Origin: Thermoproteota archaeon
GTDB lineage: Archaea > Korarchaeota > Korarchaeia > Korarchaeales > Korarchaeaceae
Reading direction: 5' to 3'
Length of the DNA stretch: 64,000 nt
Assembly (NCBI GenBank): GCA_026986575.1
Contig: JALSOH010000006.1
Location: forward strand, 1 to 64,000
Below the pieces are notes generated by a model that did no database searches, was not told the DNA's origin, and saw only the letters and a list, made by a program, of their open reading frames with translations. This document shows, one piece after another, positions 6,730 through 10,047 of this stretch (within the stretch, counting starts at the first letter, position 1; every line of letters starts with the position of its first letter). Position numbers and translations under genes: made by a program.

Positions 6730-6787
6730 TTGTCAGTTCCCAGTCCCTCATCGGGCTCGAAGCCACCTTACCAACCTCTCCTCAAGA
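6730..6787 (-). ncRNA. Candidate C/D-box guide sRNA
   Basis: Minus strand TTGAGGA (C-like)...CGATGA (C')-11 nt-CTGA (D) spanning 53 nt; TATA-like element about 25 nt upstream. Confidence 0.4.
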
Positions 6788-6852
6788 GCTGCCAGCGGAG
6801 CAAAATCTTATATTACACTCAAGACCCCAAGTTCCGAAAGAGGGGTGAGGAA

Positions 6853-7305
6853 TTGTCGGAAACTGCGGAGCTAAGGAGGATAGTAAGGCTTCTCAACACG
6901 ACCCTAGACGGTACTAAGCATGTACTCATCTCCCTGACCAATGTCAAGGGAATAAGCTTCGTTCTAGCTAAAGCGATCCTAATGAAGGCTGGCATCCCAC
7001 CGGACAAGCTTCTTGGAGAGCTGACTGACGAGGAACTGGAAAAGATAGAGGATGTGGTCAACAATCCCGACAAGTACGGCATACCTTGGTGGATGATGAA
7101 CCGGCAGAAGGATCCGAGGACCAACGAGTCCAAGATCCTGATAGGAGATGATGTCTCTTGGGTCATGACTCAGGACATAAACTTGATGAAGAAGATAAGG
7201 AGCTGGAAGGGAATAAGGCACGAGCTCGGCCTCAAGGTGAGAGGGCAGAGGACCAAGACCACCGGAAGGGTTGGGAGGACCGTAGGATACCAGAGGAAGA
7301 AGTGA
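6853..7305 (+). CDS. rps13: 30S ribosomal protein S13
   Basis: IVRLLNTTLDG, WMMNRQKD, GIRHELGLKVRGQRTKTTGR; GGGGTGA RBS before TTG 6853. Confidence 0.97.
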   Translation: MSETAELRRIVRLLNTTLDGTKHVLISLTNVKGISFVLAKAILMKAGIPPDKLLGELTDEELEKIEDVVNNPDKYGIPWWMMNRQKDPRTNESKILIGDDVSWVMTQDINLMKKIRSWKGIRHELGLKVRGQRTKTTGRVGRTVGYQRKK

Positions 7306-7316
7306 GGTGATACCCG

Positions 7317-7832
7317 ATGGGAGACCCAAAGAAACCGAGGAAGAAGTACGAGAGGCCCTACAAGCCTTGGGATAGACGGGTCCTCGAGGAGACAAATAGA
7401 CTAGCTGGTTACTACGGGCTGAGGAACAAGAGGGAGCTCTGGAGGATGAGCTATCTCGCCAAGAAGTACAGGAGGATAGCCAGAGAGCTACTGGCGGCTC
7501 CAGAGGAGGAGAGGGTGAGGGTCGAGCCCATAATAAGGAAGCTCCGGAAGCTTGGGATAGTCGGAGAGGACGCCACCTTGGATGACCTCCTCGATCTGAC
7601 GGTCGATCAGTTCTTGGAGAGGAGGCTCCAGACAATTGTCTGGAAGAAGGGCTTCGCGAAGACGCCCTACATGGCGAGGCAGCTGATAACTCACGGTCAC
7701 ATCAGGGTTAATGGCAGGAGGCTAAAGCAGCCAGGTTACTTGGTAACACTGGAAGAAGAGGAGACCATAGAATGCACGCACCCCGCATGTTTGGAGGAGC
7801 AAGCTGAGCATCCTGAGCAGAAGGCCGAATGA
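7317..7832 (+). CDS. rps4: 30S ribosomal protein S4
   Basis: MGDPKKPRKKY, YGLRNKRE, LERRLQT, ARQLITHGHI. Confidence 0.98.
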   Translation: MGDPKKPRKKYERPYKPWDRRVLEETNRLAGYYGLRNKRELWRMSYLAKKYRRIARELLAAPEEERVRVEPIIRKLRKLGIVGEDATLDDLLDLTVDQFLERRLQTIVWKKGFAKTPYMARQLITHGHIRVNGRRLKQPGYLVTLEEEETIECTHPACLEEQAEHPEQKAE

Positions 7833-7848: not shown

Positions 7849-8247
7849 ATGTCTACTCAGAAGAAGGGCAAGATCGGTGTGGCGCACATCTACTCCTCCT
7901 TCAACGATACCATAGTCCACATCACCGATATAACCGGTGCAGAGACCTTGGCTAGATACTCTGGCGGCATGTTCGTCGACGCAGACAGGCTAGAGGGTTC
8001 GCCATACGCAGCCCTCAAGGCGGCGATGGCCGCTGCCAAGGAGGCTCAGAAGAAGGGTGTGACCCATCTCATAGTCAAGGTCAGAGCTCCTGGCGGGATA
8101 AAGAGCAGGATCCCAGGACCTGGGGCCACAGCGGCCATAAGAGGGCTCTCCAGGTCCGGTCTCATACTCATCAGGGTTGAGGACGTCACGCCTATACCCC
8201 ATGATGGATGCAGGAGACCTCACGGCAGGAGAGGGAGGAGGGTCTGA
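7849..8247 (+). CDS. rps11: 30S ribosomal protein S11
   Basis: [31 protein letters not shown]. Confidence 0.98.
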
Positions 8248-8258
8248 TCCCTCTCAAA

Positions 8259-8266
8259 CTTTTATT
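8259..8266 (+). promoter_or_regulatory. TATA-like element upstream of orphan gene and rpoD
   Basis: CTTTTATT about 35 nt before GTG 8301. Confidence 0.45.
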
Positions 8267-8300
8267 CCCTTGCACCCCCAATTAGGATGAGGTAACCCTC

Positions 8301-9293
8301 GTGTCGGGGGATAACTTAGAGGAGATAGAACCCCTGCTCAGCTGGTACAAGAGGACAGGACGCGTTCAAGTGGAGTCTCTAGGTTTGGACGGACGCACAG
8401 TTATCCTCAAAATAGAGGGTAAGAAGAGGAACATTCGCTCCTTGGTAGCACTGTACGACTCATCCTTGGATGGTGATCTCTCCACTTGGCTGAGGGACCT
8501 GATAGACTCCCACAGGAGAGCGGGCATTGAGTTCGATCGAGTGGAGATCTGGACCTCTCCAGAAATGGTAGATGATCTGTCGGCTGAATCCGAAGAACTA
8601 GGTGAGGACATAGACATAGTGATAAGGTCCCTCTCGGAGCTCGGATCACCGGTGTCTCCTACCCTCACCACCCCTTCCAAGGAGCGAACGACCAGTAGAA
8701 GGGCCCGCAAGCCTTCCCTCAGGAAGGAGGAGAGCAGGACGATAGTCGTGGTGGAGGAAAGGAAGGAACATGGTAGCAGGTACGAAGAGCCCAATAGGAG
8801 CATGGAGGACAGCTTAACTGCAATTCTGAACGAGATAAAGAGGACCATAGATCAGTCGATGAAGTCCATCGTAGAGGAAGTGAGGAAGGGTAACGAGATA
8901 GATCTTCTCAATAAGATACACGAGTTGGAGAAGAGAGTGGAACTTCTGGAGGCGATGATAAGGCTGCTAGGACAGCAAGGGACCATCAATTTACCGCAAG
9001 GTGGCTGGGCGGCGAGGAACAGCGTCCTGCCCAAGCTGGAACCCACCGAGATCAAGATCAAGAGTGAGTACAGGAGGGAGCAACCGGCCGGAGCTGAGGC
9101 CGTTAGAACGAGAGAGGAGGAGAGGGCGGAATCCGCTCCCAGATACAGCCATCAAGTTAATATTCCATATGCCCAAGAGAGCGGTGGATCTGAGGAATCC
9201 CCGACCACGGAATCCGAGGACATACTTGAAGAGATATTAAGCAACCCGTGGGTCGAGATCCTCAGGAAGAAGGGTGAAGACGTTGAGGGCTAG
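8301..9293 (+). CDS. Hypothetical protein: globular N-domain, linker, coiled coil, C-terminal NPWVEILRKK helix (arcadin-2-like)
   Basis: 330-aa ORF with GAGGT RBS filling the rps11-rpoD gap; overlaps rpoD start. Confidence 0.8.
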   Translation: MSGDNLEEIEPLLSWYKRTGRVQVESLGLDGRTVILKIEGKKRNIRSLVALYDSSLDGDLSTWLRDLIDSHRRAGIEFDRVEIWTSPEMVDDLSAESEELGEDIDIVIRSLSELGSPVSPTLTTPSKERTTSRRARKPSLRKEESRTIVVVEERKEHGSRYEEPNRSMEDSLTAILNEIKRTIDQSMKSIVEEVRKGNEIDLLNKIHELEKRVELLEAMIRLLGQQGTINLPQGGWAARNSVLPKLEPTEIKIKSEYRREQPAGAEAVRTREEERAESAPRYSHQVNIPYAQESGGSEESPTTESEDILEEILSNPWVEILRKKGEDVEG

Positions 9294-10047
9294 GATCGTA
9301 AAACTTACTGGGGATGAGGCCGTTATAGTGGTTGAGGAGGCTAAGCCACCCTTGGTGAATGCCCTAAGGAGGGCCATAATATCGGAGATACCCATATTCG
9401 CCGTTGACGAGGTGATATTCTTCGAGAACTCGACCCCTTTCTTCGATGAGTACATCGCTCACAGGCTAGCCATGATCCCGCTGAAGACAGATCTGGATGT
9501 GGTCAGGGCGGATCCGGATAGGACTGTCGTCCTCGAGCTAGTCAGGGAGGCCAAGGAAGATGTTGAAACCGTTTACTCTGGGGAACTCAAGTCATCGGAT
9601 CCCCTAATCGTTCCAGCCAACGAGAGGATCCCTATAATCAAGATGCGACAGGGTCAGAGGATAAGGCTCCAGGCGGTGGCTAGGCTGGGCAAGGGAAAGG
9701 ATCACTCTAAGTGGCAGCCAGCCGTTGCTGTGGGCTACAGTTACATGCCCATGTACGAACTGAGCAAGGACCTGCTCAAGGAGTGCAGCCTCTCGAAGTG
9801 CGATGAGTGCATGAAGAAGAAGGGGAAGAAGGTCTTGGTGGATTACCCGGTTCTCTGTGAGGGGTGCTTGGAAGCCTTGGAGAGATGCAGGCTGGACAAC
9901 CCAGATAGGGTCGTCAGGGAGTGGGATGACTCTAGGATAATCCTGAGGTACGAGACCACCGGCGCCCTGTCAGCGCAGGAGGTCTTCTTGGAGGCTATAA
10001 ACCAGCTCAAGCTCAAGTTCAACGAATTTTTGGAGAAGCTTGGATGA
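9274..10047 (+). CDS. rpoD: DNA-directed RNA polymerase subunit D (Rpo3)
   Basis: NALRR, DEYIAHRLAMIPL, GKDHSKWQP; Cys-rich Fe-S-type insert. Confidence 0.97.
   Translation: MKTLRARIVKLTGDEAVIVVEEAKPPLVNALRRAIISEIPIFAVDEVIFFENSTPFFDEYIAHRLAMIPLKTDLDVVRADPDRTVVLELVREAKEDVETVYSGELKSSDPLIVPANERIPIIKMRQGQRIRLQAVARLGKGKDHSKWQPAVAVGYSYMPMYELSKDLLKECSLSKCDECMKKKGKKVLVDYPVLCEGCLEALERCRLDNPDRVVREWDDSRIILRYETTGALSAQEVFLEAINQLKLKFNEFLEKLG

Follow-up and report, generated by a model that had tools for sequence, protein, structure and literature searches.

The window analyzed here is a 64,000-nt stretch of DNA from a Thermoproteota archaeon of the Korarchaeaceae (contig JALSOH010000006.1, positions 1 to 64,000), and the gene in question is an open reading frame (ORF) located between rps11 and rpoD, which we call ORF X (P0001; positions 8301-9293, + strand; 330 amino acids (aa) plus stop, GTG start, TAG stop). 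Our results suggest that ORF X most likely encodes a highly diverged and relocated korarchaeal counterpart of arcadin-2, a regulator of the archaeal actin crenactin. Crenactin is the nearest prokaryotic structural relative of eukaryotic F-actin and, to our knowledge, arcadin-2 is its sole regulator with a solved binding mode. We consider it probable, judging from sequence profiles and a structural model, that the ORF X protein binds crenactin through its C-terminal tail, and we hold full-length orthology with arcadin-2 with somewhat lower confidence. That the protein binds crenactin, depolymerizes its filaments and shares an ancestor with arcadin-2 over its full length is what we infer from these comparisons.

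In the parts of the publication that were consulted, arcadin-2 of Pyrobaculum calidifontis is reported to depolymerize crenactin filaments (Izore et al. 2016, PMC5173319). Its C-terminal helix, which a non-conserved linker sets apart from the core, is described there as the only part that interacts with crenactin, with a tryptophan central to binding, and the complex of crenactin with the arcadin-2 peptide is available as PDB 5LY3. A first-pass annotation of the window had placed a similar terminal helix at 9222-9275, which corresponds exactly to residues 308-325 of ORF X. The C-terminal tail as a whole (residues 303-330; 9207-9290, + strand) is predicted to form two short helices around N315-P316-W317 and constitutes the proposed crenactin-groove-binding module. 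Its core motif, NPWVEILRKKG (residues 315-325; 9243-9275, + strand), is strongly conserved among the orthologues: N315, P316, W317 and L321 are invariant, together with L216 and E311, in the 23 korarchaeal family sequences that we aligned (alignment A3), across which the N-terminal domain and the linkers fall to about 20% identity. A six-frame translation of the genome (3.82 million residues) contains only four copies of the strict motif NPW[VILAM]x[VILM]L, two of which fall within hydrophobic membrane-like segments.

We compared these tails with those of 26 thermoproteotal proteins directly adjoining crenactin (alignment A2), which were obtained from the neighborhoods of crenactin matches in 401 Thermoproteota genomes (139 positive) and have no sequence in common with A3. 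A search for related loci with the korarchaeal crenactin had returned close relatives only and did not reach Pyrobaculum-type loci. The two sets of tails (last ~30-50 columns) were aligned by HHalign over 28 columns with a probability of 97.7% (E 1.8e-12), which bears out the arcadin-2-like tail claimed initially. Invariance among the 26 A2 proteins is limited to N, W and L, and most of these proteins read ...LPSF..DNPW..L..RG; this prevailing NPW form is nearer to the korarchaeal NPWVEIL than the Pyrobaculum-type NEW form is. N, W and L are also invariant across 32 tails from Korarchaeota and Thermoproteota. At the profile level of sequence comparison, the tail of ORF X is an arcadin-2 tail.

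The A2 set itself consists of genuine arcadin-2 genes. In locus L087, a 203-aa ORF after crenactin scores 300.3 bits on the NCBIfam arcadin-2 model NF053561 (cut-off 290), an Arcadin_1 gene (PF18653, E 2e-42) is located upstream of crenactin, and the next ORF after arcadin-2 is one of 795 aa. The final 17 residues of this 203-aa ORF run from arginine to arginine, in agreement with the R187-R203 peptide given in the consulted part of PMC5173319, and the arcadin-2 peptide that the first-pass annotation had given is found there letter for letter. When A2 was searched against the whole genome of origin of the window, ORF X was the best match (E 6.9e-4, model positions 126-225). Searches with A3 retrieved the crenactin-adjacent arcadin-2 as the top match in one thermoproteotal genome (G251, E 1.4e-4) and within the top three in another (G383).

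We further analyzed the presence of the presumed partner. Contig C4 of the genome of the window carries the gene of a crenactin orthologue of 427 aa (G000:C4:286281-287564, L001; E 6.8e-102 to PDB 4cj7/5ly3), as had been expected, as well as that of an Arcadin_1 homologue (PF18653, 36.2 bits, cut-off 25; G000:C4:581204-581482, L146). Crenactin was found in 41 of the 43 Korarchaeota genomes. Across the 401 sampled Thermoproteota genomes, 134 carry crenactin and the tail, five crenactin only, one the tail only and 261 neither, such that tail and crenactin agree in presence or absence in 395 of the 401. Related genomes are counted as independent here, so that the Fisher value overstates the association, although the pattern remains evident, and some of these genomes contributed rows to the tail profile used (A5). 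A NEW-type arcadin-2 below threshold is carried by at least one of the five genomes with crenactin only (G224, L091). A tail-bearing ORF was found at 28 of 30 and at 13 of 14 thermoproteotal crenactin loci vs. none of the 24 korarchaeal crenactin loci (flanks up to 10 kb), in line with the earlier claim that the gene lies outside the arcade cluster. The arcade components are dispersed in the genome of the window, where they lie hundreds of kilobases apart or on different contigs. In genomes of the basal families f4 and f5, crenactin is flanked by a convergent ORF of 665-812 aa (L121 5310-7643, - strand; L122 5295-7733, - strand; L123 183-2180, + strand) with an N-terminus judged by eye to be SMC/Rad50-like; this ORF may be the counterpart of arcadin-4.

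The interaction was also modeled. We predicted the complex of crenactin (alignment A4) with residues 286-330 of ORF X (A3) in three runs, along with three controls. The complex reached an interaction prediction score from aligned errors (ipSAE) of 0.87 (0.85, 0.87 and 0.87 across runs) vs. 0.01 for the best control; 58 of 80 solved complexes attain this ipSAE mark, as do 2 of 110 mismatched pairs, counts that apply only approximately here since the prediction used our own alignments. At least 61% of the contacts agree among the runs and the predicted local distance difference test (pLDDT) of the partner is at least 60. In the model, W317 contacts crenactin residues 169-175, 194-195 and 403-410. 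The 22 crenactins compared all retain A169, I170, E421 and G422, and 21 of them retain Y405. We take the residues contacted by W317 to be the walls of the hydrophobic groove, by offset from Q164 and in view of the residues that line the actin cleft. Crenactin Q164 is equated with actin Q137 in PMC5173319. The modeled complex places W317 in the hydrophobic groove of crenactin; modeling of this kind was among the checks proposed at the outset.

The architecture of the protein was predicted with AlphaFold2 from the 23 A3 sequences, and it matches the layout that had been read from the sequence: a compact alpha/beta N-domain of about 115 aa, S/T/P/R-rich linkers and a heptad stretch. The N-terminal domain (residues 1-115; 8301-8645, + strand) is acidic (isoelectric point, pI, 4.4) and is predicted to adopt a restriction-endonuclease-like fold, with the order a-b-b-b-a-b-a-b over residues 3-114 at a pLDDT of about 88-94. 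It is followed by a basic S/T/P/R/K-rich linker (residues 116-164; 8646-8792, + strand; pI 10.1) that is poorly conserved in A3, by two long helices (residues 165-226; 8793-8978, + strand) that carry the conserved heptad stretch ELEKRVELLE, and by a second, non-conserved linker (residues 227-302; 8979-9206, + strand). Both linkers are predicted to be disordered (pLDDT < 50 for residues 121-163 and 230-301), and helices are predicted at residues 165-195, 199-226, 303-313 and 316-326. The model of a canonical arcadin-2 presents a-b-b-b-a-b-a-b, a long helix (121-171), a disordered segment (177-189) and a helix at 194-201. The two models therefore have an identical predicted order: nuclease-like domain, long helix, disordered linker and terminal helix.

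Foldseek matched both models to proteins of the PD-(D/E)xK superfamily, with the entries 2inb, 1bam, 3bam, 2zyz_A and 8q3b_E shared between them, and the predicted N-domain of ORF X presents the a-b-b-b-a-b core fold of this superfamily. The catalytic D...(D/E)xK residues were not detected: no acidic or lysine residue is invariant or near-invariant in the N-domain of the 23 A3 members, where Y16, L48 and W84 are the only invariant or near-invariant positions. Likewise, these catalytic residues are not conserved in the 26 arcadin-2 proteins, whose N-domain conservation is limited to G17 and G90. An active nuclease was set aside because the catalytic residues are not conserved. Database scans of the ORF X protein were uninformative: Pfam and NCBIfam returned only sub-threshold coiled-coil noise, the best E value against PDB sequences was at least 0.26, and a search of the ESM Atlas with residues 1-118 gave no usable match.

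The initial description of ORF X as an orphan does not hold: its family is spread throughout the Korarchaeota and has the predicted domain order of arcadin-2. A word-indexed search recovered 17 proteins including the window's own (E 1.9e-204 to 5.3e-24), and an exhaustive search of representatives yielded 18 family proteins. The only source name for the relatives is 'hypothetical protein', from Candidatus Korarchaeota metagenome-assembled genomes (clusters of 10 relatives, two named members). Profile A1 matches 32 of the 43 genomes of the phylum, every one in genome family f1. The gene slot is also well conserved, as the proposed synteny check showed: a tail-bearing ORF occupies the slot between S11 and RpoD at 28 of the 30 korarchaeal loci of family f1, S4 and S11 precede the slot at all 30, and RpoD follows at 29, the remaining locus (L020) ending with its contig. 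The two loci without a tail-bearing ORF in the slot are L020, which is cut off by the contig end, and L018, where the tail lies in a different frame. In L018 (genome G030) the orthologue is split, through either a frameshift or an error in the assembly, into a 277-aa ORF without tail (1483-2316) and the tail (~2285-2365) in a 47-aa open frame.

The same order of S11, a tail-bearing gene and RpoD is found in families f2 and f3 and in genome G034. The tail profile A5 matches 40 of the 43 Korarchaeota genomes; A5 contains the window's own tail, and the match in its own genome is obtained by construction. Among the three genomes without a match, the gene of G025 is cut by the contig end, and the region is probably missing from the assemblies of G015 and G019, since a match to S11 is also absent there. 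ORF X is the sole A5 match of its genome at E <= 0.001, and the ORF X type is the single tail carrier in most korarchaeal genomes. In the basal families f4 and f5, profile A2 detects arcadin-2-type proteins (E 5.5e-21 and 4.2e-24). The arcadin-2-type gene of G003 (family f5; L135 187-3646; 244 aa) has uL2 (PF03947) on one side and S13 (PF00416) on the other and sits immediately upstream of the ribosomal operon that hosts ORF X in Korarchaeia, and that of G002 (family f4) lies about 91 kb away from S11.

Several results weigh against our interpretation. None of the 23 family members matches the arcadin-2 model NF053561 at E <= 10, and a search of G070, a genome with canonical NEW-type arcadin-2, with A3 returned no match. 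Two diverged crenactin-adjacent proteins of Thermoproteota also score far under the cut-off of 290 on NF053561 (35.7 and 31.1 bits), which indicates that this model is narrow. Full-length alignment of A3 and A2 by HHalign covered only 25 coiled-coil columns (probability 96.8%), and alignment of the N-domains of the family and of arcadin-2 was not significant (E 0.12 and 0.016-0.021; probability 0.5-3%), with decoys ranking equally high in N-domain hidden Markov model searches. Crenactin and ORF X are unlinked, on contigs C4 and C6, respectively. A known complex of the same kind, 5LY3, has been solved, such that the modeled complex may echo it and gives likeness only. Finally, the same tail ends Thermoproteota proteins with quite different N-domains, and the shared tail alone is therefore no proof of common descent of the whole proteins.

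This last point also favors an alternative in which a lineage-specific protein, with an N-domain and stalk of its own, acquired a portable tail and, as ParR does with ParM, uses it to tether cargo or a partner to crenactin filaments without depolymerizing them. The tail is indeed modular, since in Thermoproteota it is likewise present at the end of two HTH_23 proteins, of a protein with weak likeness to MazE/AbrB and of small family-less proteins, and two to five tail matches are present in 27 of the 135 tail-positive genomes; in addition, the N-domain similarity of family f1 to arcadin-2 is not significant, and the ORF X protein is about 100 aa longer than arcadin-2, with two linkers. However, its secondary-structure order and fold class equal those of arcadin-2, the coiled-coil segment is matched at the profile level, most korarchaeal genomes have a single tail carrier, and the acidic N-domain (pI 4.4) speaks against direct DNA binding. 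The N-domain of the f2 orthologue (L134) also provides a bridge: it shares 24% identity over 109 residues with the crenactin-adjacent arcadin-2 of L098 (BLASTP E 4e-5 in a 22-sequence database), and L098 was the best non-self match of a jackhmmer N-domain search (E 0.0021) over 6549 own-genome ORFs and both N-domain sets. Sequence homology of the N-domains is thus marginal, weakly bridged by the f2 orthologue only. The arcadin-2-type proteins carried by the basal f4 and f5 genomes further suggest that the korarchaeotal ancestor probably had such a protein. Overall, we regard a mosaic adaptor as rather unlikely, and we moderately favor a vertically inherited gene that diverged strongly and was relocated in Korarchaeia over one of mosaic origin.

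Two further alternatives dispense with an arcadin-2-like function. ORF X could be a factor associated with RNA polymerase (RNAP) or the ribosome that acts on transcription, the tail serving another purpose: its N-domain resembles the N-terminal domain of the Rpb5-type subunit, which is absent from archaeal RpoH, and the gene lies inside an operon of RNAP and ribosomal genes, at a fixed position between rps11 and rpoD with a start/stop overlap. Yet the neighboring structure matches are ordinary PD-(D/E)xK nucleases, the canonical arcadin-2 model also matches 8q3b_E, which indicates that the likeness belongs to the fold, and gene neighborhood by itself is weak evidence; we consider this explanation very improbable. 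It would be more improbable still, in our view, that the tail binds a partner other than crenactin, such as a division protein of the FtsZ or ESCRT type, and resembles arcadin-2 by coincidence. The genome has two genes of the tubulin/FtsZ family, and short amphipathic C-terminal helices are known in general as common docking elements, but the tail is identical at the profile level to an experimentally defined crenactin-binding tail, tail and crenactin co-occur almost perfectly over the 401 genomes, and Snf7 was unmatched in the genome, although the control for this search gave only a weak signal and its sensitivity is therefore uncertain.

In the favored interpretation, that of a diverged arcadin-2 counterpart, the last ~25 residues of the protein would form a helix-NPW-helix tail centered on W317. 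This tail would enter the hydrophobic groove that lies between subdomains IA and IIA of crenactin, on monomers or at filament ends (the barbed-end groove), a groove that is taken by the D-loop of the next subunit in the filament. Because the site of the tail would be that of the D-loop, the bound protein would compete with longitudinal contacts and either sequester monomers or cap or depolymerize filaments, as has been shown for arcadin-2 of Pyrobaculum calidifontis, and would thereby limit or remodel polymerization. A long disordered linker would tether the tail to the helical stalk and the acidic, catalytically dead restriction-endonuclease-like N-domain; stalk and N-domain could supply dimerization or a second contact. 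The gene would have departed from the crenactin neighborhood in Korarchaeia and become fixed between rps11 and rpoD.

A role of the crenactin system at mid-cell has been proposed in Thermoproteales (PMC5840170; Culexarchaeia preprint). The genome of the window carries two tubulin/FtsZ-family genes (G000:C4:120243-120725, - strand, and 137853-138335, - strand; 151 and 150 bits, respectively), and no match to the Snf7 family was found in it, with a positive control that was only weak and a sensitivity that is therefore uncertain. On these gene contents, division in the source organism is probably FtsZ-based, and a part in cell shape or in the turnover of filaments is as likely as one at mid-cell. 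A tail of the MIT-interacting motif or ESCRT type was set aside, Snf7 being unmatched with this weak control.

The locus of ORF X follows the description initially given, a 330-aa gene between rps11 and rpoD that overlaps the rpoD start. Upstream lie a candidate S13 gene (6730-7305; the label is that of the earlier reader), S4 (7317-7832; PF01479/PF00163) and, directly before ORF X, S11 (7849-8247; PF00411, E 2.7e-41). Downstream, RpoD (9274-10047; NF001988, E 5e-70) starts with a GTG at 9274, and the 3' end of ORF X overlaps it by 20 nt (9274-9293, + strand); overlaps of 14-20 nt are likewise present among relatives. The 53-nt spacer between S11 and ORF X contains a putative element resembling a transcription factor B recognition element and TATA box (caaac + ttttatt; 8255-8266, + strand), whose TATA-like TTTTATT at 8260-8266 agrees with the TATA-like element attributed to the gene from the start. 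A Shine-Dalgarno-like GAGGT (8290-8294, + strand) is located 6 nt ahead of the GTG start and is kept in L002-L011. AAACTTTTATT and GAGGT are conserved at 10 of the 16 related loci, and the remaining six present another A/T-rich TATA-like word at a similar distance. This conserved promoter-like element suggests that a transcription unit may begin there. Together with the fixed slot and the overlap, it also suggests that ORF X is expressed jointly with rpoD and the downstream genes. The initially proposed co-expression with ribosomal and RNAP genes, and a possible link to growth rate, would be based on the conserved gene order and this overlap.

The tail (LPSY/F..DNPW..L..RG) was also found at the end of proteins other than arcadin-2 in the Thermoproteota genomes G383 and G251 (L142 1212-1841, + strand; L145 1475-1996, - strand; L143 1317-1796, + strand; L141 1321-1764, + strand; L144 1187-1471, + strand) and in G003 of the Korarchaeota phylum (L138 25-633, - strand). 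Two of them (L142 and L145) are HTH_23 proteins (24.9 and 27.8 bits; cut-off 24.6), the MazE/AbrB-like assignment is weak (16.8 bits, below cut-off), and two of the small family-less proteins are each followed by a 342-aa ORF. By analogy, these proteins may be ParR-like crenactin adaptors. The genome of the window contains a second copy of the motif (..YFKDNPWIPIL..) in a 49-codon ORF (L104 1468-1617, + strand, or G000:C4:850656-850805) with a Fic-like gene on one side and a gene of 258 aa on the other (A2 E 0.0155; no Pfam match). Because this ORF lacks conservation across the other 42 genomes of the phylum, we do not count it as part of the system, and it may represent a relic, a small peptide or a chance occurrence.

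Arcadin-2 and its tail-in-groove mode of binding are already known. The literature consulted treats arcadins in Thermoproteales, Caldarchaeales and Culexarchaeia, and not in Korarchaeota, and we found no description of a korarchaeal arcadin-2 in a search outside the paper that first defined the arcadins (Ettema et al. 2011), where an earlier mention is possible. Within the literature searched in part, the new elements are a korarchaeal counterpart that the family model missed, a larger build with two linkers, the relocation between rps11 and rpoD conserved over f1, f2 and f3, and an NPW consensus common to two phyla. Korarchaeota thereby gain a candidate actin regulator missed by database models, and the tail defines a minimal docking motif conserved across two phyla (N-P/E-W-x-x-x-L plus basic residues). 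These results further indicate that gene linkage to crenactin is an unreliable guide to actin regulators, and they provide a directly testable peptide-protein pair. The tail on helix-turn-helix (HTH) proteins and its tracking of crenactin in 395 of 401 genomes suggest that the archaeal actin adaptor set may be wider than the four arcadins, and the portable tail on HTH and small proteins is possibly a more interesting lead than ORF X itself. More speculatively, the NPW tail could be a portable, phylum-spanning crenactin-docking motif analogous to WH2 or the ParR tail, with which HTH and other small DNA-binding-type carriers could hitch chromosomes, plasmids or viruses to filaments, and the slot of the Korarchaeia carrier between rps11 and rpoD would tie the dose of the regulator to the transcription and translation machinery.

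Comparison with known systems places these features in context. The N-domain of ORF X shares only 5-14% sequence identity with the PD-(D/E)xK-fold proteins XisH (2inb, 2okf), AF1548 (1y88) and the Rpb5 N-terminal domain (8q3b_E) and, unlike PD-(D/E)xK nucleases, lacks conserved acidic or lysine catalytic residues. The C-terminal helix of ParR on ParM (PDB 4A62) and thymosin-beta4/WH2 on actin likewise combine a short helix, a flexible tail and a hydrophobic groove of an actin-family protein (as described in the part of PMC5173319 consulted). As is the case for WH2, the tail is portable between proteins. However, neither ParR/ParM nor thymosin-beta4/WH2 presents a sequence relation to the ORF X tail, and the ParR N-domain binds centromere DNA, whereas that of ORF X is acidic. 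The closest counterpart is arcadin-2 (Rkd2, NF053561, Thermoproteales), from which ORF X differs by its length (330 vs. 193-250 aa, the larger size that had been noted at the outset), by the extra disordered linker between N-domain and stalk, by the second short helix ahead of NPW and by the position of its gene, fixed between rps11 and rpoD rather than beside crenactin. The core reads NPW in ORF X vs. NEW in Pyrobaculum-type arcadin-2, although NPW is the commoner form among the 26 crenactin-adjacent proteins. Like ORF X, arcadin-2 presents a Trp-centered C-terminal helix after a non-conserved disordered linker and the predicted order of nuclease-like a/b domain, long helix, linker and tail; it likewise occurs only with crenactin, and the modeled docking site of ORF X is the hydrophobic groove.

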